Shown here: positions 24,962-50,936 of the stretch, in pieces
Numbering within the stretch: the first letter of the stretch is position 1
Layout: every line of letters starts with the position of its first letter
Notes under the pieces: model-generated
Seen by the model: only the letters and a program-made list of their open reading frames with translations
Told to the model about the DNA's origin: nothing
Database searches by the model: none
Source of the DNA: Actinomycetota bacterium
GTDB taxonomy: Bacteria > Actinomycetota > AC-67
DNA length: 64,000 bases
Direction: 5' to 3'
Assembly: GCA_036397635.1 (NCBI GenBank)
Contig: DASWIP010000031.1
Span: 6,536 to 70,535, forward strand
Position numbers and translations under genes: made by a program

Positions 24962-24992
24962 GGGCTCTCCTTTCGAAGGCACCGGCGGGCGT

Positions 24993-26645: not shown

Positions 26646-26680
26646 GGTTTGTACGGAAATCTTACGAAATACCCCGCGGG
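26646..26680. promoter_or_regulatory. Conserved AT-rich direct-repeat motif site A (TTTGTACGGAAATCTTACGAAATACC + CCGCGG), promoter region of P2-P1
   Basis: Shares 20/26 identity with site B. The 46 nt upstream of the P2 ATG align almost base-for-base with the 46 nt upstream of the P3 ATG (GGTATTTCGTAAGATTTCCGTACAAA vs GGTATTTGTAAGGTATTCGTACGAAT). Confidence 0.45.
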
Positions 26681-26714
26681 GAGGTTTCGACGCTGTGTGC
26701 CCCGCGTCCTGCCT

Positions 26715-28388
26715 CTAGAGCGCCGGCGGTTTGACCCCGAAGACACCGAAGCGGAAAGCGAAGCTCGTGTCGCCGGCGATCCCGAGCGCGCCACGGATGA
26801 AGGCTTCCCAGGGATCGATCCGTCCGAGCGTCAGCGCAGCGAGCGTTTCCGCGTCGCCGGACAGCTCGAGCCGGCGGTGACCCCCGCTCGCGGTGCGCGC
26901 GGCGCATCGGCCTTGGTCCACCACGAGTTCTCGGGCTACCTCGCGATCGCCGACCGTGATCCGGAAGCCGATCACGACGCTCATGCCCTCGGCGGCGTCG
27001 GCGTCGAAACCGGCGACCCATGCGCCGACGATGGCATCTGCGACGGCATCGGGATCCTCGTCCTCGAGGATGGATGAGGCGGCGTCCGCTCCGGCGTCGG
27101 CCACCCGCTGCATGATCGGTGGTAACGCAGGCCGCTTCGGGGCGGCTCGCGACCGCGTGGGACGTCCGCTGAGCCAGTCGCATACCGACACGATCCGATC
27201 CCAGTCGCGTGCATGAGCGAGGTGCGCGAGGTAGGAGGCGGCTGCTCCGAGGCGGGTCGCGTCACCGTCGCCGAGTGCCGACGGATCCGCCAGCTCCCGG
27301 GCGAAGGTCTGGTGGACGGAATCTGCTGCCTCGCGAGCCCGGGACGGCCAGGGTGGAACCCGGGCGTCCGGGGGCGGAAGCCTCGGGACGGGCACAGTCC
27401 GATCTCTTTGGTACCAGTAGGCGACCGAAGACCAGTCATCGTCCCGATCGTTGGCGTGGCCGCGCTCGATGCTCGCGTGGAGTGAGCGGTCGAACCTGAT
27501 GGGATCTGCGACGTGGAAGCGGTAGAGGTGCGAGAAACCGCTCCAGTCCGGACGGTCGGTGACCGGCTGTCCGTACCATGGGTGTGAGAACTGTTCCGCC
27601 GGACTCCACGCTGTGCCCGCCCAGTCCTCCGTCCCCGTGCCGTGGATCGCCGGTGGCCATCGGTCGTCGTCGATGAAGATCATCTCGTCGCCTTCCCCAT
27701 ACCAACCGCCGTCGGTGGAGTGCACGTACAGGAACGCGCCGAGATAGTGACCCGCTCCCCGGATGTCGGCGAAAACGTGGTTGCCGTCCCGGGATGCGTG
27801 AGGCTGAGGGCCGTACACGCCGGGCGAGTCCTCCTCGCGACGAGCGGGCGTCCGGTTCCACCAGGCGTGGAAGCGCTCCGCGCGCGGCTGTTCCGGCCAG
27901 GACTCGTGATCGATGTGGAGATAGATCGCGAGCAGCGGAAGATCCGACTGATTCTCCACCTCGAGCCGGAAGCCGTCGGCGAACGGCATCTCGAACCAGG
28001 CGTGATACGAGCGCGCATCGCGCGGCGCGACCGAGAGCAGCTCGGAGGCGAACTCTCCCGCCACGCAGTTGCCGGCACCGAAGAAGTCGCCGAAGGGAAC
28101 CTCGACGCTCGGGGTTTCCTCTCCATCCCAGTACGCGCGCAGCACGAGCGATCGGCCCCAGAGCAGGTCGGGGGCGAGTGCGGTGGCCCACAGGTGCGTG
28201 ATCCGTCCCGCCCCTTCGGCTTGGGCGACGTTCTGAGTCGCGCCGGGGGGGACGAACGATGAATCGTTGTTCCCGCCGGTACGATCCCACGTCGATACGC
28301 GCGCGCGGCGCGCGGCCGAGGGGATGGCGTCGCCGGTCACCAGGCCGGACAGATCGCGCGCGTTGAGCCTGATCTCTCGTTCCGTCAT
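26715..28388 (-). CDS. DUF2961 (GH172-family glycoside hydrolase-like) protein fused to C-terminal SCP2 sterol-carrier-like domain
   Basis: DUF2961 signature VSTWDRTGGNNDS... The C-terminal ~110 aa (GFRITVGDREVARELVV...LELSGDAETLAALTLGRIDPWEAFIRGALGIAGD) is SCP2-like. The ATG at 28388 overlaps the P3 stop (ATGA). Confidence 0.8.
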   Translation of the reverse strand: MTEREIRLNARDLSGLVTGDAIPSAARRARVSTWDRTGGNNDSSFVPPGATQNVAQAEGAGRITHLWATALAPDLLWGRSLVLRAYWDGEETPSVEVPFGDFFGAGNCVAGEFASELLSVAPRDARSYHAWFEMPFADGFRLEVENQSDLPLLAIYLHIDHESWPEQPRAERFHAWWNRTPARREEDSPGVYGPQPHASRDGNHVFADIRGAGHYLGAFLYVHSTDGGWYGEGDEMIFIDDDRWPPAIHGTGTEDWAGTAWSPAEQFSHPWYGQPVTDRPDWSGFSHLYRFHVADPIRFDRSLHASIERGHANDRDDDWSSVAYWYQRDRTVPVPRLPPPDARVPPWPSRAREAADSVHQTFARELADPSALGDGDATRLGAAASYLAHLAHARDWDRIVSVCDWLSGRPTRSRAAPKRPALPPIMQRVADAGADAASSILEDEDPDAVADAIVGAWVAGFDADAAEGMSVVIGFRITVGDREVARELVVDQGRCAARTASGGHRRLELSGDAETLAALTLGRIDPWEAFIRGALGIAGDTSFAFRFGVFGVKPPAL

Positions 28389-30169
28389 TCGAACCGAGGG
28401 CCCGGCCACGCGGGGAGCGGGCTCTCCGGGCCGGGAACCTCGACCTCGCTGTAGTACCGGAGCATCCAGTACGTCGCGAGGAAGTCGATGCTGGGACCCC
28501 GCCACGGCACCGCGTGATCCCCGTTGATGATCGTCGGATCCTTCTGCCACAGGAAGTCCGCGAGCCGGCGGACCCCGACCGGCAACGGATCCTTCGCTCG
28601 GCGCGCGCTGTCGGTGCCGGGCCGGAACGGGGTGACCACCTCGTCGCCGCCGGGCACCGGCAGGACCATGTCCACCTGGTCCTTCGGCGCGCACTCCAGG
28701 GGTCGCTCCTGGATCGGAGCGTTCTCACCCGGATCTTCGGTGATGTCGCAACGCCCGGTGTGCAGGAACGGTGTGTTCCCCGCGCGCGCCGCCTCCTCGT
28801 GGAAGGCGTAGTAGTCCAGCCAGTCGCGGTGGTACCCGACCGCCTCGTCGAGCCGGGCCACCTCGCCGGTCAACGCGTAGATCATCGCCTCGAAGAACGG
28901 GTTGCCGTCGTCGGTGAGGCTCGCGTCGAGAACGGACATGGCTCGCTCGAACTCTTCTCGTACCACCGGATCCGGCTCGAGCCTTATGAGGTTGAAGAAG
29001 GACACCAGATGCAGCTGGTACTTGTAGTAGGCGTTGTGTGGGCTCATCGAGTCGATCACCATCGAGTCGAGCAGCGATCCGGTCCCGACGGTGTTCGCAA
29101 CCTCTTCGAGCCAGAGGACCTCGTAGCGCTGCTTTCCTTCGGCGTGGCCGATGAGGTTGGCGGCGTGGCGCGCGGTCTGGAGCATGTGCAACCGGTGCAG
29201 CGGAACCTGGATGAACAGCGGGCTGAACGGCCCGTTGAGGTCGTTGTCGGTGATCGGGTTGGCGACCCGCCCGTGCGGACGCGGCTGGTTCCACAGGTAC
29301 TTCAACGCGTAGTCGGTCATGGCCATCAGGTCGTGCGCGAGCGTCGCGCGCAACTCGGGGTTCTCCTCGGTCGCCAGGTAGTCGAGCGCGACCGCGAGAC
29401 CGAAGATCGTCCCCATGTAGGAGTCGCGACTGGTGTTCTGGACGCAGTACCAGTTCCGGCCGTCTTCCCACCGAAGCGGCCCGATGACGTAGGGCGTGGG
29501 GGCGTAGTTGTAGCGGATGTCGGTGTAGGCGGGATCCGCGTCCTCCGGGGTGCACGTACGCATAAGCAGGCCCTTCTCGCCTGGGATGACGCCCCCGCCG
29601 TAGTCCAGCCAGCCGGACTCGTCCGGCGTCTTGCTCAAGTCGATCTGCGGGTCGAGCTCGGTCTCCCAGTACTGCGCGATGTTCACAAGGATGTGGTAGT
29701 AACCGACGATTTCAGCGGCGCGCGCGCGAGCTTCGTCGCGCTGCCCGCGCCAGAACGCTACTGCTGCGGAATCGCTCGGTACATCGTCGAGCGGGTCGAC
29801 GCCGAGTAGCACGAGCTGCGCTTTGGCTTGGGCGTACCGCCACGACTGCGCCGCGAGGTATACGCCGGTGTAGTTACCGGAGTCGCCCTCCCCTTCCATG
29901 CGCACCGGCTGGGCGTCCGGGTCCAGGTGCGGCCACGCGTCGAACAGCAGCGGGACGATCATGCCCTCGAAGGTGTGTTCGGGGATCAAGGATTCGAAGC
30001 GAAGGGCCGCGTCGAGGTCTCCGGCGGTGTCGAGCGGACCGGTGTCGTCACTGATCGCCTCGAAAGGCTCCGCCTGCCCGATGGGCGGATTGACGGCGAG
30101 CAGCGCGAGCACGAGTCCGAGGAGCGGGGCGATCCCCCGACGCATGACACCGTTCCCGCGTGATCCCAT
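28385..30169 (-). CDS. Secreted protein, paralogue P3 of the same family
   Basis: AAGGGGG SD before the ATG at 30169 and signal peptide MGSRGNGVMRRGIAPLLGLVLALLAVNPPIGQA. Same motif set as P1/P2, and translationally coupled to the DUF2961 gene. Confidence 0.75.
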   Translation of the reverse strand: MGSRGNGVMRRGIAPLLGLVLALLAVNPPIGQAEPFEAISDDTGPLDTAGDLDAALRFESLIPEHTFEGMIVPLLFDAWPHLDPDAQPVRMEGEGDSGNYTGVYLAAQSWRYAQAKAQLVLLGVDPLDDVPSDSAAVAFWRGQRDEARARAAEIVGYYHILVNIAQYWETELDPQIDLSKTPDESGWLDYGGGVIPGEKGLLMRTCTPEDADPAYTDIRYNYAPTPYVIGPLRWEDGRNWYCVQNTSRDSYMGTIFGLAVALDYLATEENPELRATLAHDLMAMTDYALKYLWNQPRPHGRVANPITDNDLNGPFSPLFIQVPLHRLHMLQTARHAANLIGHAEGKQRYEVLWLEEVANTVGTGSLLDSMVIDSMSPHNAYYKYQLHLVSFFNLIRLEPDPVVREEFERAMSVLDASLTDDGNPFFEAMIYALTGEVARLDEAVGYHRDWLDYYAFHEEAARAGNTPFLHTGRCDITEDPGENAPIQERPLECAPKDQVDMVLPVPGGDEVVTPFRPGTDSARRAKDPLPVGVRRLADFLWQKDPTIINGDHAVPWRGPSIDFLATYWMLRYYSEVEVPGPESPLPAWPGPRFE

Positions 30170-30193
30170 CTCGGCCCCCTTGACGCACCCCGA

Positions 30194-30226
30194 TTCGTAC
30201 GAATACCTTACAAATACCGTGAACGG
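30194..30226. promoter_or_regulatory. Conserved motif site C (TTCGTACGAATACCTTACAAATACC + CCGTGAACGG palindrome) in the 49 bp divergent P3/P4 intergenic region
   Basis: Same architecture and absolute orientation as sites A, B, D and E. It ends at the candidate GTG start of P4, so P4 is probably leaderless. Confidence 0.45.
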
Positions 30227-31850
30227 GACACAAGCCCTCATCTGGCGCGCGGCCGCAGCCGTGCTGTGCGGCGCTTTGCTCACGCCCGTGGGAGCGTCCG
30301 CCTCATCGCCGCTCACCCCCGACGACCAGGCCGCGGCTCTGCTGCTCGAGGACCGCATCGCGGACAACCTGTGGTACGGCCAGGTCTTCGAGGCGACCTA
30401 CCGCACGCCCGATCGCACGCCGGGTGATCTCGCGAGCGTGCACAACTTCGGTGACTCGGCCCTGTGGACCGGCACCTATCTCGCAGCGGAGGCGTTCCGG
30501 TACGCGACCGCGCGCACCAAGATCGCCACCGGCGAGGACGTGGCTTTCTGGGGCGAGCAGCAGGCGGAGGCGAAGGCCCGCATCGATCAGATAGTCGCCA
30601 AGTACCACCTGCTGATCAACATCTCGAAGAACTGGGATTACGAGCTCGAGCCCTCGCTGGACCCGCCGTCGTTCGGCGGCGGCGTGTTCCGCGGCGAGCC
30701 CGGGTACCTGATGCGCGCCTGCATCCCCACCGACGCCCCCTCGTGGGCGACCTGGGGCGAGCCGCGCGGCCCCCGGGTGTTCGGGCCCTTGGACTGGGAC
30801 GACGGCAACCAGTACTGGTGCGAGGACGCGACCAGCCGCGACGCCTACGCCGGCACGACCTTCGGTCTTCTGACCGCGTTCGACCTCGTCGGGCCCGACG
30901 ACGACGAGCTGCGCGCGCAGATCCGTGACGACGTCATCACGATGACGACCTTCGCCCTGAAGTACCTGTGGAACACGCCGCGGCCGCACGGCAACATCTC
31001 GCTGCCGCCGGAGGACCTCGAGGAGTACAGCCCCGTCGACGTCTGGGGGCACGACTTCGAGAATTTCATCTCGCCGTTGTTCGTCTACGTCCCGATGGCG
31101 AGGCTCAACATGACCCAGATCGCTCGCCACGTCGCCGATGAGGCGGGCACGCCCGAGCAGGCGGCCTTCTGGGAAGCGGTCTGGGCAGAGGAGCTGGCGT
31201 CGCAGGGCTCGTTGCTCGCGACGTCGATGGAGATCGATTCCTTCCAGCCCAACGACGGGTACTACAAGTTCAACCTGCATCACCTCACCGGCTACACCAC
31301 GATCAGGCTCGAGCCGGATCCGGCAGTGCGCGAGCTGCTTCGCCAGGCGTTCAGCGTCATGGACAACACGACTCGCGACGACGTCAATGCGCACTTCGAG
31401 ACCATCACCTACGCGCTGACCGGCGAGGCCGGCCGTCGTGACCTAGCGATCGAGCACCTCCGGGAGTGGCTCGACTATCGCGCGCGCATCGACCTGGGCG
31501 TGCCGACCAACAACAGCCCCGGCTGCGATGTCGAGTTCGAATGTGTGGCGCGGGACTCGCTCGAGCTGGTCGTGCGCGCGGCGGACGGATCGGAAGCCGC
31601 CGCGGTCACGCTCTTCCCCGGGACCGACGCCCGGCTGCGCGCGCGCCGCCCCCTGCCGGTGCCGCTCCGTCCCCCGACCGATTTCCTGTGGCAGCGGCCG
31701 CCGACGCAGCTCGAGGGCTTCGAAGGGGCGACGCGCCAGGCACCGGGCATCGACTACCTGCTGCCGTACTGGATGCTTCGGTACTACACGGACGTGGCGC
31801 CGCCGGGCTTGTCGCCGTTCCCGCCTTACCCTGCGCCGGCGCACGCATGA
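30219..31850 (+). CDS. Secreted protein, paralogue P4 of the same family (start uncertain: GTG 30219 or TTG 30180)
   Basis: The 5' part of track ORF 29898..31850 overlaps the divergent P3 and is not credible. From the GTG at 30219 the N-terminus MNGTQALIWRAAAAVLCGALLTPVGASA is a plausible signal peptide. Same motif set as P1-P3. Confidence 0.65.
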   Translation: MNGTQALIWRAAAAVLCGALLTPVGASASSPLTPDDQAAALLLEDRIADNLWYGQVFEATYRTPDRTPGDLASVHNFGDSALWTGTYLAAEAFRYATARTKIATGEDVAFWGEQQAEAKARIDQIVAKYHLLINISKNWDYELEPSLDPPSFGGGVFRGEPGYLMRACIPTDAPSWATWGEPRGPRVFGPLDWDDGNQYWCEDATSRDAYAGTTFGLLTAFDLVGPDDDELRAQIRDDVITMTTFALKYLWNTPRPHGNISLPPEDLEEYSPVDVWGHDFENFISPLFVYVPMARLNMTQIARHVADEAGTPEQAAFWEAVWAEELASQGSLLATSMEIDSFQPNDGYYKFNLHHLTGYTTIRLEPDPAVRELLRQAFSVMDNTTRDDVNAHFETITYALTGEAGRRDLAIEHLREWLDYRARIDLGVPTNNSPGCDVEFECVARDSLELVVRAADGSEAAAVTLFPGTDARLRARRPLPVPLRPPTDFLWQRPPTQLEGFEGATRQAPGIDYLLPYWMLRYYTDVAPPGLSPFPPYPAPAHA

Positions 31851-31884
31851 ACACCCGAACGCCGGCACGGCCGTCGCGGATAGC

Positions 31885-32934
31885 ATGAGCGACGCGGAGA
31901 CCCCCGCAGCCATGAACACCGAGCAGATCCCCTCGTCCCGCCCTTACGCGCTGTCCGCGCGCGGGGTAGGTGTGAGTTTCGGAGGCTTGCGCGCGCTCGA
32001 CGGCGTGGACCTCGACGTCGAGCCCGGCGCCATCATCGGTGTGATCGGGCCCAACGGCGCCGGCAAGACCACGCTGTTCGATGCGATCAGCGGGTTCATC
32101 CCATGCGAGGGGAGGATGTGGGTCAACGGCGTCCAGATCAGCGGCCTCCCACCGCACCGCCGCGCCGCGGCCGGGCTCGGCCGCTCGTTCCAGGACGCGC
32201 GCTTGTTCCACGCCATGACGGTGCTGGACACCCTGCGGGTCGCCTGCGAGCTGCACGTACGCGCTTCAGGCGTCGTTGGCATCGTGCTCGGACTGCCCGG
32301 CGCGCGCGGCGCCGAGCGCGCTGCGACCGCGCGCGCGCTGGAGCTTGTCGAGCTGTTCGGGCTCGGCGGATTCCGCGACAAGCTCATCCGTGAGCTGTCC
32401 ACGGGGACACGCCGGATCGTGGACCTCGCGTGCGTGCTCGCCCACGGCCCGTCGGTCGTGATGCTCGATGAGCCGTCGTCGGGGATCGCGCAGCGGGAGA
32501 CCGAAGCCCTGGGTCCGTTGCTGCGCCGGATCCGCGACCGCACCGGGTGCGCGATGCTGCTGATCGAGCACGACATGCCGTTGCTTCTGCACCTGGCCGA
32601 GCGCGTCTACGCGCTCGAGACCGGCCGCGTGATCGCATCGGGGGATCCCGAGGATGTCGTGCACGACCCCGAGGTGATCCGCTCGTACCTCGGTGCCGAC
32701 GCCGCCGCGATCAACCGGTCGGGCGCGCTGCCCGATGCCGCGCCGAAGCCTCGGGCTACCCGAGCCCGCAGGCCAGCGAAGGCCGCGCGGTCCACGACAT
32801 CGAACGCCGAAGCCACGACATCGAACGCCGAGGCCAAGATGAAGAAGGTGCGCGCACGCGCAGCCGCCACCAAGAAGGTCACCAAGAGAGCCACGAAGAA
32901 GGCGCCCACCACGAAGGGCAGCCCCAGCGTATGA
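31885..32934 (+). CDS. ABC transporter ATP-binding protein, LivG-like, with C-terminal Lys/Ala/Thr-rich histone-H1/HupB-like tail
   Basis: Walker A GPNGAGKTT, signature LSTGTRR, Walker B VVMLDEPSSG. The tail is ...KMKKVRARAAATKKVTKRATKKAPTTKG. A 21 bp tandem duplication (STTSNAEA x2) lies at 32789-32830. Confidence 0.85.
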   Translation: MSDAETPAAMNTEQIPSSRPYALSARGVGVSFGGLRALDGVDLDVEPGAIIGVIGPNGAGKTTLFDAISGFIPCEGRMWVNGVQISGLPPHRRAAAGLGRSFQDARLFHAMTVLDTLRVACELHVRASGVVGIVLGLPGARGAERAATARALELVELFGLGGFRDKLIRELSTGTRRIVDLACVLAHGPSVVMLDEPSSGIAQRETEALGPLLRRIRDRTGCAMLLIEHDMPLLLHLAERVYALETGRVIASGDPEDVVHDPEVIRSYLGADAAAINRSGALPDAAPKPRATRARRPAKAARSTTSNAEATTSNAEAKMKKVRARAAATKKVTKRATKKAPTTKGSPSV

Positions 32935-36816: not shown

Positions 36817-36819
36817 CCG

Positions 36820-39053: not shown

Positions 39054-39057
39054 GTCC

Positions 39058-43840: not shown

Positions 43841-44885
43841 GATCGTCGCTCGCGGAGGCGACCTCGCCCCCCCGGATGCATCCCGCCACTTTCAGCTCGG
43901 CGTCCCAGATCGCGAGGTCGGCGCGCGCGCCGGGCGCCAGCGTCCCGCGATCGGCGGCCTCAAGCAGCGCGGCCGGCGCGGCAGAGGCCATGCGCGCGGC
44001 CTCCTCGATGCCCAGCCCGTGCACGCGCGCGATCCGGCCGACGCCGTCGGCGAGGGTCGCGGCCGAGCCCGCGAGCACGCCGGCCGGCGGGCGACGATCG
44101 GGGGCGGCGTCGGGGTCGGGGGCGGCGTCGCTGACCAGGAAGACGCGCGGCCCCGCGACGCGCAGCGCCAGCGCGAGGATCGCGTCGTGCAGGTGCACCC
44201 CATCGGCGATCAGGGCGACGCGCCCGCGCTCGTCCAGCAGGTACGCGAGTGCGGCACCGGGCGCGCGCTGATGCACGGGCGTCATCGCGTTGAACAGGTG
44301 CGTCGCGACGTCGATGCCGTCCTCGATCGCCTCGATCGCCTGCTCGTAGGTGGCGCCGGTGTGCCCGGCCGCCACGACGATGCCTCGCGCGATCGCCGCG
44401 GCTGCGTAAGCGCGCGCGCCGGGCACCTCCGGTGCGAGGGTGATCATGCGCACGCCCGGCAGTTCGAGCAGCGCGCGCGTCTGCGGGTCGTCGCCGCGGC
44501 GCAGGTGCTCGGGCGGATGCGCGCCCGGGTGCTCGGGGGACAGGACGGGTCCTTCCAGGTGCAGGCCGAGGAGGCCGGTGTCCGAGCCGTCGCGGGCGGC
44601 GGCGACTGCAGCGGCGAGCGCCGCGACGCGCGCGGGCTCGGATGACGGCACCGCGCAGAGCCACGAGGTCACCCCCGCGGCGGCGAGGCGCGCGTCCAGA
44701 GCCGGCAGGCACGCGGGGTTCCCGAGCGGGAACAGCTCGCCCAGCCCGTTGACCTGCAGGTCGATGAGCCCCGGCGTGATCGACCATCCTTCGGGGAGGT
44801 CCACGACCGGCCCGGCCGGCGGCGCGCTTAGGACGGGCCCGTCGATGCAGACGAGCCGGTTGGCGGCGCGCAGGCTCAGGCGCAT
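43824..44885 (-). CDS. nagA: N-acetylglucosamine-6-phosphate deacetylase
   Basis: GLIDLQVNG, HLEGP, AAGHTGAT and HLFNAM motifs. The start was moved to the ATG at 44885 (MRLSLRAANRLVCIDG); the track's N-terminal extension to 45374 is unsupported. Confidence 0.85.
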   Translation of the reverse strand: MRLSLRAANRLVCIDGPVLSAPPAGPVVDLPEGWSITPGLIDLQVNGLGELFPLGNPACLPALDARLAAAGVTSWLCAVPSSEPARVAALAAAVAAARDGSDTGLLGLHLEGPVLSPEHPGAHPPEHLRRGDDPQTRALLELPGVRMITLAPEVPGARAYAAAAIARGIVVAAGHTGATYEQAIEAIEDGIDVATHLFNAMTPVHQRAPGAALAYLLDERGRVALIADGVHLHDAILALALRVAGPRVFLVSDAAPDPDAAPDRRPPAGVLAGSAATLADGVGRIARVHGLGIEEAARMASAAPAALLEAADRGTLAPGARADLAIWDAELKVAGCIRGGEVASASDDLRALL

Positions 44886-45556
44886 GTCTCGCCCATGATG
44901 ACGGTCAGCGACGGATGGCGGCGGAGGTGCGATGCGGGGACGTCGTCCCCCGCCGGTCCCTCGAGCAAGCGAAGCAGCGCGGCTTGCTTCCCGGGGCCGG
45001 CCGCGATGATCGCGACTCGCTCGGCGCGCATGATCGTGCCGAGACCGATCGTCAACGCGAGCGCCGCGGGTGCGACGCCGCCGAGCCGCGCGAGGTTCGC
45101 CGGTGCCAGCGCCACGATCCGGACGCCGTCGGCGGCCCGGCTGCCGGGCTGGTTGAAGGCCACGTGCCCGTCGGGGCCGAGCCCGAGCAGGACCGCGGCC
45201 AGTCCCTGTTCCTCGATGCGAGTCTCCAGCGTCGCGGGATCGGCGGAAAGGTCGTCCACGCGTGCGGCCAGCGCCGCCGGGAGCGCGCGCCGCAGGCGGC
45301 TCGCGAAGCGCTGGTCGGGATCCGCCGGCGGCGGCATCAGTTCGTCCACGGGCACGATGGTGCGCTCCGTCCACGCCGGATCGTCGGCGGGCAGGTCACC
45401 GTAGAGTGGGAGCGTGCTGGAGCCGACCGCGAGCCCGACGAGCCTGCCCCTGCCGGCATGCAGGGCTTCGAGCAGCCACGCGCGCGCCGCGGCAGCCAGC
45501 CCGGGACCCGACGCCCGGATGAGGTTCGGCGCGGCGGGGATCTCTGCTGGTGGCAT
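44876..45556 (-). CDS. nagB: Glucosamine-6-phosphate deaminase
   Basis: LLGLGPDGHVAFNQPGS active-site motif. The start was set at the MPPAEIP ATG (45556). The track start at 45589 would overlap the divergent GH84 start codon within CCATGG. Confidence 0.8.
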   Translation of the reverse strand: MPPAEIPAAPNLIRASGPGLAAAARAWLLEALHAGRGRLVGLAVGSSTLPLYGDLPADDPAWTERTIVPVDELMPPPADPDQRFASRLRRALPAALAARVDDLSADPATLETRIEEQGLAAVLLGLGPDGHVAFNQPGSRAADGVRIVALAPANLARLGGVAPAALALTIGLGTIMRAERVAIIAAGPGKQAALLRLLEGPAGDDVPASHLRRHPSLTVIMGETCA

Positions 45557-45587
45557 TTTGTACGAGAATCTTACATAATTGCCGGCC
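45557..45587. promoter_or_regulatory. Conserved motif site B (TTTGTACGAGAATCTTACATAATTGCC + GCCGGC) filling the 31 bp between the divergent nagB and GH84 start codons
   Basis: 20/26 identity to site A. Contains the -10-like TACATAAT 8 nt before the GH84 ATG, so the transcript is probably leaderless. Confidence 0.45.
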
Positions 45588-46886
45588 ATGGGCGAACGGC
45601 GATGGCTGGGCGCGGTCGAGGGCTACTACGGCCCGCCGCTGTCGCACGAGGAACGCGTCGAGCTGATCCGCTGGCTCGGGACGCAGGGGTTCAACGCATA
45701 CGCCTACGCGCCGAAGGATGACCCCCTCCATCGCGAGCGTTGGCGCGAGCCTTACCCCGAAGACCGGCGCGCGCTGTTCCGCGAGCTGGTCGCCGAGGGG
45801 CGCGCGGCGGGGCTCGAGGTCGTGCTCGTCGTCTCCCCGGGCCTGGACTGGGGCGACGACGACGAAGCCGCCCTCGCGGTCAAGCTCGAGGCGTTCGCCG
45901 AGGACGGAGCGCAGACCCTCGGGATCGCCTTCGACGACGTGCCGCCCGGTGGGGCCCAGCTCGGGGCCGCGCACGCTTCCGGTATCGCGGCCGCCGTCGG
46001 GCGGCTCGGCGGCGGGTTCGAGTGGATCACCTGCCCGACCGACTACGCGAGCGATCGAGTGACTGCCTACCTGCGCGCCTATCACGACGGACTCCCCGAC
46101 GGCGTCGAGGTGATGTGGACCGGCCCGTCGATCGTGAGCCCGCGCGTCACCGGCGAGATGGCCGCCGCCCTCGGCACGGAGCTCGGCCGGCCGCTGCTGT
46201 TCGCGGAGAACTATCCCGTCAACGACGGCCCCATGGCCGGCGTGCTGCACCTGGGGCCCTACCGCGGTCGCGCGCCGGACCTCCCGGCGGCGACCAGCGG
46301 CGTGTTCTTCAACTTCATGTCATTCCCGCGCGCGAGCCGCCTCGCGCTCGCTGCCGGCGCGCGCTTCTGGCGCGACCCGACCGGGGATCCCGAAGCGATC
46401 TGGCGCGAGTGCCTCGCGGCATCCCCGGGGCTGGAGCCGCTGGCCCGCGCGTCGCGCTCTTGGATCGGCGACGAGGGCCCCGACGCCGGACTCGCGTCGG
46501 CGGCCGCGGCGGCGCTCGACGGGGACACCGCGCCGCTCAAGGCCTACATCGACGCGGGAGTGCGCGACGGGCTCGAGCCGGCGCTCGCCGCCGAGATCGA
46601 GCCGTGGCTCGCGCAGTGGGAGGCCGAGACGCTGGCGATGCGCTACGCGACGATGTGGCTCGACGAGCCCGACCGCTGGGGGGTCGAGGGCCCATTCGCC
46701 GTCGCCGAGGCGTGGGCGCGCGCGCGTCACTCGCGGCTGCAGCTTTTCGGCATCCGGTGGGCGTACTACCCGCTGGTCGCACGCGCGGGGGACGAGCTGC
46801 TCGCCCTGCCCGAGGCGTTGGTGACCGGCGCGAACCTGACGGACCTGCTGTGCGCTACCGTGATCGAGCGGGCCTCGAAGGGCTGA
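45588..46886 (+). CDS. GH84-family beta-N-acetylglucosaminidase (O-GlcNAcase-like), no signal peptide
   Basis: N-terminal GAVEGYYGPPLSHEERVELIRWLGTQGFNAYAYAPKDDPLHRERWREPYP matches the GH84 catalytic-domain start (cf. human OGA: GVVEGFYGRPW...LNTYLYAPKDD). The protein begins directly with the domain. Confidence 0.8.
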   Translation: MGERRWLGAVEGYYGPPLSHEERVELIRWLGTQGFNAYAYAPKDDPLHRERWREPYPEDRRALFRELVAEGRAAGLEVVLVVSPGLDWGDDDEAALAVKLEAFAEDGAQTLGIAFDDVPPGGAQLGAAHASGIAAAVGRLGGGFEWITCPTDYASDRVTAYLRAYHDGLPDGVEVMWTGPSIVSPRVTGEMAAALGTELGRPLLFAENYPVNDGPMAGVLHLGPYRGRAPDLPAATSGVFFNFMSFPRASRLALAAGARFWRDPTGDPEAIWRECLAASPGLEPLARASRSWIGDEGPDAGLASAAAAALDGDTAPLKAYIDAGVRDGLEPALAAEIEPWLAQWEAETLAMRYATMWLDEPDRWGVEGPFAVAEAWARARHSRLQLFGIRWAYYPLVARAGDELLALPEALVTGANLTDLLCATVIERASKG

Positions 46887-47586
46887 GGTCCACCTCGATC
46901 CCCGCGAGGCGAAGCAACCCCCACGCCGCCGCCGATTTCGCCGGGCCGGGCGCCGCCGACGCCTCGACCCGGTACGCGCCGAGTAGCGCGCGCACCGCGC
47001 GAAGGATCGCCGGGTAACGCCGGGCGAGCCCACCGCCGATCACGATCAGCTCGGGCGTCTCCGCATCCTCGATCGAGCGCGCGAGCGCGGCGGCGATCGT
47101 GCCGATCGCCTCCACCGGCACCGGCGAGGGGAGCGCCCATCCGGCGGCGACCGTCTCGAGGCATCCGGTGCGCCCGCAGGGGCACGCCGCCTCGCCGAAC
47201 GAGCCGCGATGCCCGAAGACCTCGTGCTCGACGACGGCGCCGTCACGCACGATCGCGCCGCCGATGCCGGTGCCGAGCCCCAGGTACGCGAGATCGCCGA
47301 CGCCCCGCAGGACGGCCTCGCCCAGCGCCGCGGCTTGGGCGTCGTTGGCGACGACGCGCGCGGTGCCGTCGAGCCCGAGCGCCGCCACGGGGTCCACGTC
47401 GAACCAGCGAAGGTTGGATGCCGCGACGACCCGGCCACCTGCGACGAGGCCCGGCACCGCGATCAGCAGCGGCGCGCCGTCGGCACGCGAGGCGCCGTCG
47501 AGGAACGCCGGCTCGGCCGCGCCGTCGAACACGACGGTCTGGATGCCACCGCCCCCTACCTCGATGCAGACAGCGCGCGCCGTCAT
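46855..47586 (-). CDS. ROK-family sugar kinase (N-acetylglucosamine/glucose kinase-like)
   Basis: The 3' third of track ORF 46855..48687 reads MTARAVCIEVGGGGIQTVV...CPCGRTGCLE (ROK Zn motif). The ATG at 47586 overlaps the regulator stop (ATGA). Confidence 0.75.
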   Translation of the reverse strand: MTARAVCIEVGGGGIQTVVFDGAAEPAFLDGASRADGAPLLIAVPGLVAGGRVVAASNLRWFDVDPVAALGLDGTARVVANDAQAAALGEAVLRGVGDLAYLGLGTGIGGAIVRDGAVVEHEVFGHRGSFGEAACPCGRTGCLETVAAGWALPSPVPVEAIGTIAAALARSIEDAETPELIVIGGGLARRYPAILRAVRALLGAYRVEASAAPGPAKSAAAWGLLRLAGIEVDLSPSRPARSR

Positions 47587-48743
47587 GTCCGCAGGTGGAA
47601 CGTCTCGGAGAGCACGAGCCCGGCGGCGCCGAGCAGCGTCGCGCGCTCGTTCAGTGAGGACAGCACGATGTCGAGGCCGTCGCGCAGGTGCGGCAGGCAT
47701 CGCTCGCGCGTGTGCTGCTCGATGCGCGCGCGAAGGTCCTCGCCTCCGCCGACCGCGTCGCCGTGCAGGATGATCCGCGGCGGGTTGACCAGTTGCATCA
47801 GCAGCGCGAGCCCGAGCGATAGGTTGGCGGCGTACAGGTCGAGCAGCGCGCCGGCGTCGCGAACGCCGGTGCGTGCGAGCGTCACGAGCGCGGCCGCGTC
47901 GAGCTTGGACGCGCCGGGAAGCTTGCGCGCGCGCGCCTCGCGTCGCAGCCACGGCAAGGTCGCGATCGTCTCCCAGCAGCCGCGGAGTCCGCACGCGCAG
48001 CGCGCGTCGTCCCCGAGCGGCACGTGTCCGATCTCGCCGACGCGTCCATCTTCGCCGCGGTAGATGGTCCCGTCGATCACGAGGCCGGCGCCCAGGCCGT
48101 GCCCCGTCTGGATGGCCGCGAAGGTGGCGACACCGCGACCCTCGCCGAACCATTTCTCGCCGAGCGCTTGGGCGTGAGAGTCGTTGTCGATGAGCACATC
48201 GGCGTCCAGGCGCTCCCGTAGCCCCTGCGCGAGCGCGTTCCCGCCGAGCCCGGTGATCTGCGACGAACCGACCACGACGCCGTGCGCCGGGTCGCACACG
48301 CCCGGGACGGCGACCCCGATGCCGAGCAGGTCCGGCCGCGTGGGCGACAGTAACGCCGAGACCCTCGCGACGATGTCGCGATGCACCGCGCGACCGTCGG
48401 TCGGATCGGTCAGCTCGGCCGCCTCGTGCGCGAGCAGCTCGCCGCGCGCGCTCACCAGCGCGGCCTCGCACGCATCGGCGCGCAAGGCGATCCCGACCGA
48501 GAGCCCGGCGCCGGCGCGGAACCACAGCGGGCGTCCCGGCTTGCCCACCCGTGTCACGCTTCGGTCGGGGGGCCCTTCCTCCAGCAGCCCGCCGTCGAGC
48601 AGCGGCCGGACGATGCCCGAGATGGTGGCGCGCGGGACGCCGGCGAGCCGCGCCAGGTCGGCGCGCGTCAGCGGCCCGTGGTCGCACAATGCCTGCAGCA
48701 CGCGTGAACGGTTGACATCGCCCATGCGGCTCGGGGACAGCAT
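47583..48743 (-). CDS. ROK-family transcriptional regulator (NagC/Mlc-like: HTH + ROK domain)
   Basis: HTH LTRADLARLAGVPRATISGIVRPLL and ROK motif CACGLRGCWE. The start was chosen at the ATG at 48743, which has a GGGGGGAAAC SD. Confidence 0.8.
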   Translation of the reverse strand: MLSPSRMGDVNRSRVLQALCDHGPLTRADLARLAGVPRATISGIVRPLLDGGLLEEGPPDRSVTRVGKPGRPLWFRAGAGLSVGIALRADACEAALVSARGELLAHEAAELTDPTDGRAVHRDIVARVSALLSPTRPDLLGIGVAVPGVCDPAHGVVVGSSQITGLGGNALAQGLRERLDADVLIDNDSHAQALGEKWFGEGRGVATFAAIQTGHGLGAGLVIDGTIYRGEDGRVGEIGHVPLGDDARCACGLRGCWETIATLPWLRREARARKLPGASKLDAAALVTLARTGVRDAGALLDLYAANLSLGLALLMQLVNPPRIILHGDAVGGGEDLRARIEQHTRERCLPHLRDGLDIVLSSLNERATLLGAAGLVLSETFHLRT

Positions 48744-48865
48744 GCGCGCGCTACCGCGGCGGCCGTTTCCCCCCGGGTCGATGATGCCCCCCTGCCCCGA
48801 TCGTCGATGAGTGAGCGCATCGTAGCGGGGGCGCGCGCGTCCGGAGGTGTGGGTGGGCGCGTCGC

Positions 48866-50002
48866 TCACGTTGCCTCCCTCGCGAACGCCCCGGCGACCA
48901 GCGCGTCGGCGAGCTGGGACACCGCGCGCGCGCCGAGGCTAACCGTCTCCTCGTAGCCGTCGCCGAACGGCATCGGGAGATAGCCGTGCCACGCCGGCGC
49001 GAGGCCGGCCAGCAGCGCGCGCCCTCCCCGTGCATCGTCGATCGCGCGTCCGAGCGCGTGGAACGCCTCCCCCGGGATGCCGACCAGATGCACCGAGCCG
49101 AGCATCCACTCGACCAGCTCGACGGTGTCCTCGGTGATGCCCAGCAGCTGCGCGAGCGTGCCCTCGGCGGGAACCGTCAGGTGCCGCGACCCGGTCCGCA
49201 AGGGTCCGGCGATCGGAACGGCGGCGGTGAGTGCGGTGTGGACTGCGATGGCCGCCGCCGCTCCGATCGCCGATGCTTCCTCGTAGGCCTCCGCGAGATG
49301 GGTGGGAACGTCGGTGTGTCGTTCCACCGGGTTCACGTCGCCGAGCGAGCCGGAGAGCATGACCGTCGTGCCGCCCCCGATCTCGGTCAGCGCCTCGCGG
49401 AACGGTCCCACCCAGTCACGCGAAACCGCGAGCCACGGCGAGCCCAGCGACACAGGATGGATGGCGATGTTCGCGATCACGCCGACGCGCGCGCCGTCGG
49501 TCGCGCGCAGCTCGAGCGCGGCGAACCACGGGTCGTAGGGCAGGCCGCGGCGGTTGTAGGAGATGTCCGCCGGCAGTGATGCGCGCGCGTGATGCAGCGT
49601 CACCGGCACCGCCGCCGCTTTCGCCGCGCGCGCCGCATCGGTGCACCGCTCGACCAGGAGCCGGCCGTATCCTTCCGGCGTTTTCCAGCCGAGCTGCTCG
49701 CCGCCGGCCATCGCGTTGGGTCCCGAATGGGTGTGCGTGCTCGAGGTGAGCACCGCGTCGCGAGGCAGACCATGCTCGACCGCGAGCGTGTCGCGGATCG
49801 GGTCGGAGAACTCGACCGACATCCCGAGCAGGTCCAGCACGAGCACGCACGCGGCCCGTTCACCGTCGTCGAGCCAGACCGCGTAGACCTCGAGGTCGTC
49901 GTGCACGGTGCCGGCGGGCTCGGTCCTGTCGGCGAAGCCGGCGAGGCTGACCGGCACCGGCGGCGTGATGGTCGCCTTGCCGATCCCCGCGCGCCAGCTC
50001 AC
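48866..50002 (-). CDS. Neutral/alkaline ceramidase-like hydrolase (N-terminal catalytic-domain-like, ~379 aa)
   Basis: ...VLVLDLLGMS...SSTHTHSGPN resembles the neutral-ceramidase THTHSGP motif. The GTG at 50002 is coupled (GTGA) to the upstream hydrolase stop. The long N-terminal extension in the track ORF overlaps the neighbouring gene. Confidence 0.5.
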   Translation of the reverse strand: MSWRAGIGKATITPPVPVSLAGFADRTEPAGTVHDDLEVYAVWLDDGERAACVLVLDLLGMSVEFSDPIRDTLAVEHGLPRDAVLTSSTHTHSGPNAMAGGEQLGWKTPEGYGRLLVERCTDAARAAKAAAVPVTLHHARASLPADISYNRRGLPYDPWFAALELRATDGARVGVIANIAIHPVSLGSPWLAVSRDWVGPFREALTEIGGGTTVMLSGSLGDVNPVERHTDVPTHLAEAYEEASAIGAAAAIAVHTALTAAVPIAGPLRTGSRHLTVPAEGTLAQLLGITEDTVELVEWMLGSVHLVGIPGEAFHALGRAIDDARGGRALLAGLAPAWHGYLPMPFGDGYEETVSLGARAVSQLADALVAGAFAREAT

Positions 50003-50904
50003 GCGCCGCCCCCGAGCACCTGCGAGGCGAAGCCGCGGATCCGCCCCGACGCCTCCTGCCGGCGCGTTACGAAGAAGATGTGTCCCGCCTCGTCGTAGGT
50101 CTCTAGCGTCGCACCCGGGATCGCGCGCGCGTAGTGCTCGCCGTGGAACAGGGGGACGACCTCGTCGGCCGTCCCGTGCAGCACCAGGGTGGGAACGGAG
50201 ATCTGAGGGACGTCGTCGCGGGAAGCCTGAGCGCGGCGGATCTGTGCCAGGTCGTTGCGCATCCCCGCCAGACCCGGGGGCGCATCCAGGTGGGTTCGCG
50301 CGAAGGCGACGAGGTCGTCGCGGATGCGAGGGTCCGCGGCCACGCGGCGCTGCTCGTCGGGGGTCAGGTCCGAGGCGATCTTGCGGTCGATGACGCGTGC
50401 GCTGGCGAGCTGCCGCGCCGCGAGCACACGGCCGACCGCCGACAGGATCTCGCCGAGCACCGGGACGGTCATCAATCGCGGCTCGCGTGGGATCTTCAGC
50501 CGGTGGGCGACCAGCGCGCAGGCGAGCACCAGCCCGGCGGTCCGATCGGGGTGCCGGGCCGCGAACGCGGCGGCCGGCGGCCCGCCGCCGGACGCGCCGA
50601 CGACCAGCGCGCGCTGGATCCCGAGCGAGTCGAGCGCGGCCGCGAACGCGTCGGCCTGCTCGTCGTAGGTCCGCCCGACGCTCAGGGGAGTGCGCCCGTA
50701 GCCGGGCCGCGAGGGCGCGATCACCCGGTAGCCGTCGCGCAGGTCGGCGGCCAGCGTCAGGGCCTGGCGCCACGAGCCTGGGACGCCGTGGACGACCAGG
50801 ACGCACGGGCCGTCGCCGGCGCGACCCACTTCGATGGGTCCGTGCGCGGTGGGCACCAGCGCAACGTCGTCCCAGATGCTGGTTGCGGGAGACTCGGTCG
50901 GCAT
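49999..50904 (-). CDS. Alpha/beta-fold hydrolase
   Basis: HGVPGS oxyanion region, nucleophile elbow VGASGGG, and a C-terminal HG...DE...H catalytic region. Confidence 0.8.
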   Translation of the reverse strand: MPTESPATSIWDDVALVPTAHGPIEVGRAGDGPCVLVVHGVPGSWRQALTLAADLRDGYRVIAPSRPGYGRTPLSVGRTYDEQADAFAAALDSLGIQRALVVGASGGGPPAAAFAARHPDRTAGLVLACALVAHRLKIPREPRLMTVPVLGEILSAVGRVLAARQLASARVIDRKIASDLTPDEQRRVAADPRIRDDLVAFARTHLDAPPGLAGMRNDLAQIRRAQASRDDVPQISVPTLVLHGTADEVVPLFHGEHYARAIPGATLETYDEAGHIFFVTRRQEASGRIRGFASQVLGGGA

Positions 50905-50936
50905 GATTGGTAAGATATCATACTAATACCCGCGGA
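50905..50936. promoter_or_regulatory. Conserved motif site D (TTGGTAAGATATCATACTAATACC + CCGCGG) between the ADP-ribosylglycohydrolase stop and the alpha/beta-hydrolase start
   Basis: Same orientation as A-C and E. On the minus strand it reads GGGTATTAGTATGATATCTTACCAATC-ATG, which parallels the P2 and P3 promoter regions. Confidence 0.4.

Follow-up and report, generated by a model that had tools for sequence, protein, structure and literature searches.

Transcription regulators of the ROK family bind palindromes of about 23 bp (PMC3553997). In bifidobacteria, the ROK regulator NagR controls nagA, nagB and nagK and is released by GlcNAc intermediates (PMC9599254). The site of RokB, from Streptomyces coelicolor, is TTTGTTC-N11-GAACAAA and overlaps a start codon (PMC4856308). 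In this work, we have analysed a stretch of 64,000 nucleotides (hereafter the window) from an uncultured actinobacterium, a sequence which matches metagenome contigs only, and five related sites in it, A to E, that had been picked out by a sequence-only reading. The analysis supports viewing these sites as shared, putative cis-regulatory elements at the promoters of a glycan and amino-sugar gene set. They are quite probably the operators of a ROK-family transcription factor encoded at 47583–48869. A local amino-sugar and glycan regulon under one ROK repressor would be nothing unusual among the modes of gene control in bacteria.

All five sites are present where they had been reported, and Pfam searches together with gene calls have confirmed that they front the paralogue operons, the nagB/GH84 pair, the hydrolase/ceramidase/ROK operon and the substrate-binding-protein gene. 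The candidate operator at site A (26648–26668, TTTGTA-CGGAAATCT-TACGAA; none of the five is assigned a strand) lies 20 nt upstream of the ATG of P2 (26627, minus strand), and the gap holds the ribosome-binding site GGGAGGAG. Behind it is the P2-P1 operon (23273–26627, minus strand), whose products are, judged from paralogy and fold, secreted paralogues of an uncharacterised (alpha/alpha)6-barrel family; a family match for them was sought in Pfam and NCBIfam and none was found. Site C (30194–30214, TTCGTA-CGAATACCT-TACAAA) is located between the divergent P3 (ATG at 30169, minus strand) and P4 (GTG at 30219, plus strand). On its left is the P3-DUF2961 operon (26715–30169, minus strand; assigned by paralogy and Pfam, DUF2961 3.5e-73), and on its right, according to Pfam, the operon of P4, an ABC ATPase and a Metallophos/PQQ-propeller gene (30219–35102, plus strand). 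Site E (35103–35123, TTTGTA-TGTATAGT(T)-(T)ACCATA) directly follows the TAG stop of the Metallophos/PQQ gene and is 95 nt upstream of the ATG of the substrate-binding protein (35218). That gene opens an operon (35218–43840, plus strand; Pfam) which also encodes a DegT aminotransferase, a GFO/IDH/MocA oxidoreductase, a fused permease, an MFS-ABC ATPase fusion and a HAD hydrolase.

Site B (45557–45577, TTTGTA-CGAGAATCT-TACATA) lies between nagB, whose ATG (45556, minus strand) abuts it, and GH84 (ATG at 45588, plus strand). The nagB-nagA operon on its left (43824–45556, minus strand; gene calls) encodes a GlcN-6-P deaminase-like protein (Pfam Glucosamine_iso) and a GlcNAc-6-P deacetylase (NCBIfam nagA, 1.1e-50), and the gene on its right (45588–46886, plus strand) a GH84 beta-N-acetylglucosaminidase (Pfam NAGidase, 1.8e-65). 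Site D (50907–50926, TTGGTA-AGATATCA-TACTAA, with an N8 spacer) is 2 nt from the ATG (50904, minus strand) of a four-gene operon (46855–50904, minus strand): an alpha/beta hydrolase (49999–50904), a ceramidase-like protein (48866–50002), the ROK regulator (47583–48869) and a ROK kinase (46855–47586), with a 4-nt stop/start overlap at each junction. Taken together, the sites are placed in front of seven transcription units, which span 23273–50904 and comprise about 20 genes. As had been proposed, several of these genes begin very close to a site, the starts of nagB, GH84, P4 and the hydrolase gene being only 0–9 nt away.

The similarity of the five sites is not due to chance. The conserved core, T(T/C)nGTA-N9-TACnAA, is palindromic but not perfectly so, and D and E have eight rather than nine bases between the two arms (N8). 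In the window, the pattern GTAnG-N7-TAC is matched by A, B and C on both strands, which gives 6 matches versus 0.5 expected, while TTnGTA-N9-TACnAA with at most one mismatch has 3 matches versus 0.05 expected. A and B agree in 20 of the 22 nt of a common consensus, which has 2 matches versus 0.00 expected. For the shorter spacing, GTAnG-N6-TAC shows 3 matches versus 0.74 expected, a number reached in 11 of 100 shuffles. D and E score well only with an N8 matrix, for which the best hits in shuffled sequence have a 95th percentile of 15.5 and a maximum of 21.1, and N8 spacing was found in none of 40 other loci.

For comparison, we have collected 32 loci (493 kb) around orthologues of the ROK regulator in other Actinomycetota, and counted without bias all 4-mer palindromes with spacers of 0–14. 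TGTA-N9-TACA ranks first among the spaced palindromes, with 16 occurrences versus 0.25 expected, that is, a 64-fold excess; the second, AGTA-N7-TACT, falls in coding sequence. Only these 16 foreign sites were used as seeds of a weight matrix. When the 64 kb are scanned with it, the five sites of the window take the top five places and the next distinct hit scores 6.9; in 50 shuffles, the best hit averages 9.9 and peaks at 15.4. Site B has the highest score in the window (33.0), C scores 21.4, A ranks fourth with 19.9, and E, whose spacer can be read as N8 or N9, scores 24.6 or 20.1, respectively. D is the weakest, with 19.6 under N8 and 11.1 under the standard N9 matrix, the latter within reach of shuffles.

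In the 32 loci, 36 sites score at least 20, versus 0.05 in shuffles, and 20 of them are non-seeds. None of the 36 is within a labelled gene and 34 are at the start of a syntenic gene, namely genes for the substrate-binding protein (11), ABC ATPase (8), ROK kinase (7), nagA (6), ROK regulator (4), P homologues (4), GH84 (3), and the hydrolase, nagB, DegT and ADP-ribosylglycohydrolase (1 each). Thus the motif recurs at the same genes in genomes with an orthologous regulator. Locus L004 has a counterpart of site B between GH84 and nagB (ATGTATGGTCTTCATACAAAATG) and, at the position orthologous to D, in front of the hydrolase gene, a site with a score of 26.8. Site A has its counterpart in the same motif upstream of P homologues in other loci, and the half-site variant of C is also seen in L087 (TTCGTA-N9-TACGAA, upstream of a P homologue). 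Site E is close to a recurrent variant, TTTGTATGTATAGTTTGCATTT, which in L004, L007, L010, L013, L014, L019 and L030 precedes genes for the ROK regulator, an ABC transporter or a hydrolase. In addition, five loci anchored on P2 (L084, L085, L088, L089 and L090), on contigs too short to reveal the presence of a ROK gene, carry a site scoring 15.3–23.5 about 40–320 nt upstream of the P homologue.

The ROK regulator itself has 428 aa (minus strand, third gene of its operon) and consists of an N-terminal winged helix-turn-helix and a ROK sugar-binding domain. Pfam reports ROK (9.6e-43) plus MarR_2, HTH_20 and TrmB, and the nearest solved structures are the ROK regulators 1z05, Lmo0178 and Mlc. The NCBIfam models for NagC and Mlc score below their cut-offs (138.5 vs 650 and 112.3 vs 530, respectively). 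This regulator had been named as one candidate binder, and that suggestion is supported by the present results.

The sites also overlap promoter-like sequences, whose positions are matches to consensus. A candidate −10 box, TAAGAT (reverse complement of 26659–26664), can be read within site A, and another, TAAGGT (reverse complement of 30205–30210), within site C on the P3 side. For P4, the candidate promoter TTGACG (30180–30185)-N18-TACCTT (30204–30209) was read from the sequence and is below the threshold of the promoter scan; if it were used, the P4 GTG would be nearly leaderless. The scan itself has given TTGTCG-17-TATAGT (35088–35116) at site E, with the −10 box inside the operator, and GTGGCA-18-CATAAT (45550–45579) spanning site B. 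The GH84 ATG is 8 nt after CATAAT, the P4 GTG 9 nt after TACCTT, and the hydrolase ATG 7 nt after TATCTT. In Frankiales loci, a consensus TTGACA box is found at a spacing which places the −10 box within the operator.

Based on what is known of the family, a dimer of the ROK regulator would recognise the half-sites T(T/C)nGTA and TACnA(A/T), nine bases apart, with conserved contacts expected at about ±5 to ±10 from the dyad centre. As judged by consensus matches, each site would overlap a candidate −10 box, transcription start or start codon of one or two units, so that a bound protein would block RNA polymerase. Since the regulator's own operon is among the targets, autoregulation is implied. 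An amino-sugar intermediate (GlcNAc, GlcNAc-6-P or a relative) may bind the ROK domain and release the DNA; this effector is proposed by analogy with NagC and NagR and from the nagA, nagB, GH84 and ROK-kinase content of the regulon. The ATCTTAC centre, the GTAC, the GC palindrome and the AATACC tail (the tail compared among window sites only) are most simply taken as lying outside the recognition site, and may belong to the promoters (−10 box, spacer) of the genes that start on the minus strand to the left of A, B, C and D. Four of the five sites have an ATAC(C) tail at one end, which the palindrome model leaves unexplained.

The sequence-only reading had described the motif as two direct-repeat units of about 11 bp followed by a GC palindrome, all in one orientation. 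Actually, the conserved symmetry is inverted, TGTA-N9-TACA across the 32 loci, and the impression of a first TAC unit comes only from the C that follows GTA in A, B and C. A GC palindrome is indeed present at four of the five sites, but is not conserved: 6-bp palindromes, which begin at 3% of window positions, accompany foreign sites at only 4 of 72 flanks. No weight can be given to the shared orientation, because the core is palindromic, the chance of 1 in 16 is weak in itself, and a minus-strand gene starts just left of A, B, C and D. Although the units do look alike within the window (e.g. TACGAATACC and TACAAATACC in site C), and a SARP gene with BTAD, Trans_reg_C, NB-ARC and TPR domains is encoded there (14041–17571, AfsR-like, about 9 kb from the nearest site), it is highly improbable that direct repeats (TAC..AAT.C) are bound by a SARP- or OmpR-type activator such as this one. 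The first unit vanishes in foreign sites, where GTAC is seen only once in 35 and the central nine positions vary; TTAC, GTAC, ATAC, TACG and TACA show no enrichment as 11-bp direct repeats; a SARP homologue was sought in the 32 orthologous loci and found in none; and the candidate −10 boxes are overlapped by the sites rather than located downstream of them. A MITE-like origin, in which the sites would be what is left of a small mobile or repeated element that spread within the genome in one orientation, is barely credible, even though A and B are nearly identical over their consensus and the five can all be aligned in a single orientation. Their likeness ends within about 25–30 bp, the flanks are without apparent terminal repeats or target duplications, and the starts of orthologous genes carry the sites in genomes that share only 50–70% protein identity, which contradicts a repeat-element origin and indicates conservation by selection, not recent spread.

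Sigma-70 promoters have 16–19 nt between −35 and −10. It is very unlikely that the sites are a shared promoter module only, that is, a −10 box with flanks for a particular sigma factor and no repressor: the TAnnnT hexamers (TAAGAT, TAAGGT, TATAGT, CATAAT, TATCTT) are sensibly spaced from start codons, but the conserved bases are symmetric half-sites, and their nine-base separation fits neither a −10 hexamer nor a −35/−10 spacing. Moreover, the would-be −10 box in A, B and C is the central part, variable between genomes, and genes on either strand are served by the same palindrome. On the other hand, the sites might belong to another dimeric factor encoded elsewhere (an amino-sugar regulator of the GntR/HutC type or a global carbon regulator) that happens to accompany this gene set, while the ROK protein binds something else. 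We consider this unlikely, although palindromes of the GTA-N-TAC type are generic, the association between regulator and motif is partly built into a sample chosen by presence of the ROK gene, and L005, the second-closest orthologous locus (67% identity), retains the ROK gene yet has only degenerate sites (at most 8.8) at the expected places. Against it, Pfam reveals no other transcription factor gene within 23–52 kb, in most loci a site immediately precedes the ROK gene or the operon containing it, and related palindromes (GGTATGTA-N9-TACATACC and TTTGTT-N9-CACAAA) stand just upstream of ROK genes with 41–46% identity in Streptosporangiales and Alphaproteobacteria, despite different neighbourhoods. 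A DasR-type site was not found in the cluster, the sole hit in the window (6558, 3 mismatches) being at chance level. Finally, the TTTGT half-site is similar to the RokB site, which has been defined by experiment (PMC4856308).

The proposed ROK regulon can be compared with four described systems. RokB (SCO6115) of Streptomyces coelicolor has a mapped inverted repeat, TTTGTTC-N11-GAACAAA, which shares the TTTGT/ACAAA core with the sites here, and for its overlap with a start codon, repression by occlusion has been proposed (PMC4856308). However, RokB has 15 bases between the two cores, compared with 11 here, chromosomal RokB sites have no clear inverted repeat, and the RokB regulon concerns amino-acid metabolism and transport (PMC4856308).

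NagC and Mlc of Escherichia coli are, like the protein here, full-length ROK regulators with an N-terminal helix-turn-helix, and their operators are likewise dyads of 21–23 bp, conserved from ±5,6, with a variable centre and AT-rich arms (PMC4288165). They also control nagA/nagB-type genes and have the regulator encoded with its targets (PMC4288165). The invariant bases at ±5,6 differ, being TT/AA in NagC/Mlc but TA/TA, within TGTA...TACA, here; PTS genes are absent from this locus, which has an ABC transporter, GH84, DUF2961 and four genes of one unknown family instead.

NagR of Bifidobacterium is an actinobacterial ROK repressor with a palindromic operator predicted, as here, by comparative genomics, several operators of differing strength, and a regulon with nagA, nagB, a ROK kinase (nagK) and glycan-uptake ABC transporters (PMC9599254, PMC4746261). 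Its effectors are GlcNAc intermediates (PMC9599254, PMC4746261), and similar ones may act here by analogy. Binding by NagR has been tested by EMSA while that here is predicted, the gene content differs in that LNB/GNB and HMO genes are absent here, and the likeness concerns the form of the operators and part of the regulon. The ROK regulators of Thermotogae belong to a different phylum and have different motif sequences, and several have been validated in vitro (PMC3553997). Nevertheless, they also form local sugar regulons, with the regulator beside transporter and hydrolase genes, and their 23-bp palindromic motifs were obtained by a similar comparative reconstruction (PMC3553997).

All five AT-rich intergenic sites that the sequence-only reading had described are present in the window at the exact positions reported: A at 26648 (GGGTTTGTACGGAAATCTTACGAAATACCCCGCGG), B at 45557 (CATTTTGTACGAGAATCTTACATAATTGCCGGCC), C at 30194 (CGATTCGTACGAATACCTTACAAATACCGTGAACGG), D at 50907 (TGATTGGTAAGATATCATACTAATACCCGCGG) and E at 35103 (TAGTTTGTATGTATAGTTACCATATACGACGTC). 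In these 64 kb with 68.6% G+C, the only occurrences of GTA-N9-TAC are the three at A, C and B, and those of GTA-N8-TAC the two at E and D. We have derived expected counts from shuffles keeping the dinucleotide content. The shuffles predict 0.5 matches to GTAnG-N7-TAC, where the window has 6 (three sites, each on both strands); for TTnGTA-N9-TACnAA, allowing up to one mismatch, they predict 0.05 where it has 3, and for the 22-nt A/B consensus 0.00 where it has 2. GTAnG-N7-TAC fits A, B and C read from either strand, and the core is therefore an inverted repeat, GTAnG-N5-CnTAC, which in these three sites is flanked by TT at the left and AA at the right. The one-base-shorter pattern fitting D and E is not significant alone (3 matches against 0.74 expected, a number reached in 11 of 100 shuffles), and site D is the least secure of the five.

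The sites are distributed over a gene cluster of the following layout. P1 (23273–24982) and P2 (24993–26627), both on the minus strand, lie to the left of site A, and a DUF2961 protein (26715–28388, minus) and P3 (28385–30169, minus) lie between A and C. P4 (30219–31850, plus) is to the right of C. P1–P4 are secreted paralogues with 37–54% identity. Between P4 and site E are an ABC ATPase and then a Metallophos/PQQ-propeller protein ending at 35102, and to the right of E is the substrate-binding protein (35218–36816, plus). The transporter operon, on the plus strand, includes a DegT aminotransferase and a GFO/IDH/MocA oxidoreductase (within 36820–39053), then a fused permease, an MFS-ABC ATPase fusion (41049–43091) and, as its last gene, a HAD hydrolase (43088–43840). 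nagA and nagB (43824–45556, minus) are found to the left of site B and GH84 (45588–46886, plus) to its right. The ROK kinase, ROK regulator (47583–48869), ceramidase-like protein and alpha/beta hydrolase genes are translationally coupled at 46855–50904 on the minus strand, to the left of site D, while an ADP-ribosylglycohydrolase (50952–52277, minus) is to its right. Domain searches have found the ROK regulator as the sole transcription factor gene at 23–52 kb.

Several of these genes deserve separate mention. The MFS-ABC fusion is one 680-aa ORF (MFS_1 at residues 32–376, ABC_tran at 455–597); it is kept in many orthologous loci at 51–71% identity and is also one gene in the source assemblies. 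The DegT/GFO/HAD trio, which we take to resemble the kanosamine enzymes NtdA/NtdC/NtdB, would suggest the handling of keto- or amino-sugars. The ADP-ribosylglycohydrolase gene is syntenic with the cluster in four other loci (L014, L019, L021 and L024), and the region upstream of it in the window (52290–52345) holds only a weak motif-like ATTCGCAAGAGTTTCCAACTTTT with a score of 3.9. Upstream of the cluster are a LuxR-type response regulator (5826–6998, minus), a cNMP-binding protein with collagen-type repeats (12721–13992, minus), an AfsR/SARP-like STAND regulator (14041–17571, minus), an ECF-type sigma factor (18723–19337, minus) and a Hint-domain protein (22290–23225, plus), none of which shows a link to the motif in other genomes.

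Comparison with other genomes decides between the direct-repeat and the inverted-repeat reading. Scanning species-representative genomes with the ROK regulator has given 80 loci, all picked by way of the ROK gene; 32 of them belong to Actinomycetota-type assembled genomes with 50–71% protein identity and amount to 493 kb. We have counted every 4-mer palindrome at spacers of 0–14 in these 32 loci, and TGTA-N9-TACA is the top-ranked spaced palindrome, with 16 occurrences against 0.25 expected. A symmetric weight matrix was then built solely from these 16 foreign sites and run over the window. Its five highest scores there belong to the five sites, namely B with 33.0, C with 21.4, E with 20.1, A with 19.9 and D with 11.1, and the distinct match that follows has 6.9; over 50 shuffled windows, the best match has a mean score of 9.9 and a maximum of 15.4. 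When the central column is dropped for an N8 spacer, E scores 24.6 and D 19.6, with everything else in the window at most 8.4, while the best shuffle match has a 95th percentile of 15.5 and a maximum of 21.1. Since no N8-spaced site scoring at least 17 is found in 40 other loci, the short spacers of D and E are peculiar to the window.

A score of 20 or more is reached by 36 sites in the 32 loci (0.05 in shuffles), and 20 of them were not seeds of the matrix. None of the 36 lies inside a labelled gene, and 34 are located at -40 to +400 nt from the start of a gene homologous to a window-cluster gene. The genes behind them encode the substrate-binding protein (11), the ABC ATPase (8), the ROK kinase (7), nagA (6), P homologues (4), GH84 (3), one each of the hydrolase, nagB, DegT and the ADP-ribosylglycohydrolase, and the ROK regulator (4, a count that uses extrapolated starts, with more seen by eye). 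The closest locus, L004, has a site between GH84 and nagB, orthologous in position to B, and one upstream of the hydrolase gene, orthologous in position to D. Among 35 distinct foreign sites, the bases are nearly invariant on the left at -10 T, -8 T, -7 G, -6 T and -5 A, and on the right at +5 T, +6 A/G, +7 C, +8 A and +9/+10 T/A; positions -4 to +4 are variable.

We have also used a second anchor that is independent of the regulator, namely P2 searched against metagenome contigs. In five P2-anchored loci (L084, L085, L088, L089 and L090), a site scoring 15.3–23.5 is found ~40–320 nt upstream of the P homologue. In L087 the site reads TTCGTA-N9-TACGAA, a variant whose half-sites also occur in window sites A and C. 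The window region itself is matched by metagenome contigs only (~63–71 kb). On the other hand, the second-closest orthologous locus, L005 (67% identity, on a 1.58-Mb contig), shows the motif in degenerate form only, with scores of 8.8 and 4.5 (7938 and 13928), where strong sites would be expected. This locus retains the hydrolase/ceramidase-like/ROK/ROK-kinase operon and GH84/nagA. Palindrome counts upstream of ROK genes, if left unnormalised, are dominated by GC-rich 4-mers and give no information on the actinobacterial groups. AGTA-N7-TACT, which ranks second in enrichment in the orthologous loci, looked like a second motif, yet it is coding sequence and not a regulatory site: it lies in a block conserved towards the C-terminal end of the substrate-binding protein (window 36740; SBP genes of L005–L033).

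Three other explanations of the sites have been weighed against an inverted-repeat operator. The sequence-only reading had seen two 11-bp tandem direct repeats followed by a GC palindrome and had proposed a SARP- or OmpR-type activator. The apparent direct TAC..AAT.C units arise from the C that follows the left GTA in A, B and C (giving GTAC), together with the AT-rich centre and right flank. Foreign sites keep the palindrome and not the repeats: the first TAC, as GTAC, is present in 1 of 35, and direct repeats of TTAC, GTAC, ATAC, TACG and TACA at an 11-bp period are not enriched in the orthologous loci (a count read for these targeted rows only, the top of the ranking being swamped by runs of N). 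Thus the direct-repeat reading fails the comparison while the palindrome holds. The AfsR/SARP regulator invoked as a neighbour is a real gene with BTAD, Trans_reg_C, NB-ARC and TPR domains, but it lies ~9 kb from the nearest site. A tblastn search with it has found no homologue in the 32 orthologous loci or in L084–L091, the sole matches being unrelated ones in L040 and L044. In SARP promoters, the repeats replace the -35 box and are found next to the -10 box on its upstream side; here the candidate -10 boxes of consensus-match promoters are inside the sites, not downstream of them. The SARP/OmpR proposal is rejected on the direct-repeat count, the base frequencies of foreign sites and the SARP synteny.

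A further candidate is the operator dre of DasR, the GntR/HutC amino-sugar regulator of Streptomyces, with the 16-bp consensus ACTGGTCTAGACCACT. No match to this consensus is found in the cluster, where the nag genes are; the one window match, at 6558, has 3 mismatches, is inside a gene and is at chance level. Moreover, the GntR domain is absent from every gene between 20 and 55 kb, and a dre operator is rejected on these two grounds. As for a remnant of a small repeat element, also suggested earlier, a MITE or dispersed repeat should show extended similarity, terminal repeats or target duplications, and copies independent of gene starts. The similarity among the sites is limited to ~25–30 bp, all copies are at gene starts, and distant genomes have them in the same positions, so this suggestion is given up as well.

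The other features first ascribed to the element, a common orientation and an adjoining GC palindrome, may be traced to the surroundings of the inverted repeat. As the core is palindromic, the orientation rests on the flanks alone. Each of A, B, C and D has the start of a minus-strand gene directly on its left, and the common centre ATCTTAC is the reverse complement of G-TAAGAT, a candidate -10 box of these left-hand genes; this would place the AATACC tail and the GC-rich palindrome in the spacers of those promoters. Site E faces a plus-strand gene and has a different recurrent variant (TTTGTATGTATAGTT...) with a candidate plus-strand -10 box. Palindromes of 6 bp start at 3% of window positions and occur on 4 of 72 flanks of foreign sites. 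On these observations, both the shared orientation and the GC palindrome are taken as local promoter features or coincidence. A one-sided ATAC(C) tail is present at four of the five window sites, and there is a smaller possibility that it is no promoter spacer but a second recognition element, used, e.g., by a partner protein or for an additional contact.

Candidate promoters are found at the sites. The promoter scan, by consensus match, gives TTGTCG-17-TATAGT at 35088–35116, with its -10 box within site E, and GTGGCA-18-CATAAT at 45550–45579, which spans site B and is followed after 8 nt by the GH84 ATG. Reading the sequence at site C gives a candidate TTGACG-N18-TACCTT 9 nt before the P4 GTG. 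In the same way, candidate minus-strand -10 boxes are read within the operators: TAAGAT in both A and B, TAAGGT in C, and either TATCTT or TATGAT in D. P2, nagB, P3 and the hydrolase gene start 7–29 nt from these boxes. The nagB ATG abuts operator B, an arrangement also seen in L004. In the Frankiales-type loci, a conserved CTGTCAA, the reverse complement of the consensus -35 box TTGACA, stands beside the operator (L008 9961, L011 8012, L012 1777, L015 9943, L016 9957 and L087 8239; L023 10763, L027 10856 and L033 16190), spaced such that the -10 box of the divergent transporter or nagA/ROK-kinase promoter falls inside the operator. Judging from these predicted overlaps, the protein bound here may repress by promoter occlusion.

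With regard to this protein, the ROK regulator is the most likely candidate. It is full-length, with an N-terminal winged HTH and a ROK domain (Pfam ROK 9.6e-43, plus MarR_2, HTH_20 and TrmB), it has 1z05, Lmo0178 and Mlc as PDB relatives, and it is encoded among the genes that carry the sites. The window sites have the dyad symmetry over ~21–23 bp expected of ROK-family operators. In most loci the motif is directly upstream of the ROK gene or ROK operon, and in the other genomes bearing the orthologue it precedes both the regulator gene and sugar transport and catabolic genes. Given this dyad symmetry, the linked full-length regulator and the conserved regulon, the element is predicted to work like a ROK operator of the NagC/Mlc/NagR/RokB type.

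Distant ROK homologues (41–46% identity; Streptosporangiales and Alphaproteobacteria) have different gene neighbourhoods and related palindromes just upstream, GGTATGTA-N9-TACATACC and TTTGTT-N9-CACAAA. In Streptosporangiales (L035–L037, L044, L045, L047 and L048), two tandem ROK paralogues with ~44–45% identity to the window regulator are preceded, at ~65 nt, by a longer palindrome, GGTATGT(A/C/T)-N9-(G/A)TACATACC. The alphaproteobacterial homologues (41–46% identity; Kaistia, Labrys, Inquilinus and Rhizobium) have palindromes of the AGTTTGTT-N9-CACAAACT type at 150–300 nt before the ROK gene (L051, L053, L057, L060, L064, L066, L069, L072, L074, L077 and L083), with a GFO-type oxidoreductase ~4 kb off in a neighbourhood unlike that of the window.

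Overall, five look-alike sequences become a defined local regulon of one ROK regulator, five predicted operators, seven transcription units and ~20 genes, conserved with shuffled gene order in Frankiales-, Acidimicrobiia- and Mycobacteriales-type metagenome-assembled genomes. The P1–P4 family, the ceramidase-like protein, the MFS-ABC fusion and the DUF2961 protein thereby gain a link to amino-sugar/glycan use. For the P family, sequence searches have given no match in Pfam, NCBIfam or PDB, and fold comparison alone is informative: as the confident model of one member is an (alpha/alpha)6 barrel, the family may represent a new glycoside hydrolase family. We would further suggest, tentatively and at somewhat short of even chances, that the operator marks an undescribed glycan/amino-sugar catabolic system of uncultured Actinomycetota, under a new NagC-like ROK subfamily recognising TGTA-N9-TACA. 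If so, its most heavily regulated genes would be the four secreted paralogues P1–P4, together with GH84, DUF2961, the DegT/GFO/HAD trio and the MFS-ABC fusion transporter. No new regulatory principle is revealed; the gain is a recognition sequence that can be put to the test for a ROK branch as yet uncharacterised.

ROK regulators are known to bind palindromes of ~23 bp (PMC3553997). In NagC/Mlc operators, the only invariant bases are those at ±5,6 around a variable centre, TT/AA (PMC4288165). The window motif has the same geometry, i.e., conserved ±5,6 around a variable centre, whereas its bases are TA at -6,-5 and TA (TG in a variant) at +5,+6. In addition, the NCBIfam equivalog scores of the ROK regulator are 138.5 bits for NagC against a cut-off of 650, and 112.3 for Mlc against 530. 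With scores so far under the cut-offs and different invariant bases, the regulator is, on sequence grounds, neither a NagC nor an Mlc orthologue. RokB of Streptomyces coelicolor binds TTTGTTC-N11-GAACAAA, which overlaps a start codon (PMC4856308). In bifidobacteria, the ROK protein NagR has nagA, nagB, nagK and glycan transporters under its control, and GlcNAc intermediates release it (PMC9599254, PMC4746261). Judging from the content of the regulon (nagA, nagB, GH84 and the ROK kinase) and by analogy with NagC and NagR, the effector of the window regulator may be an amino-sugar intermediate such as GlcNAc, GlcNAc-6-P or a relative.
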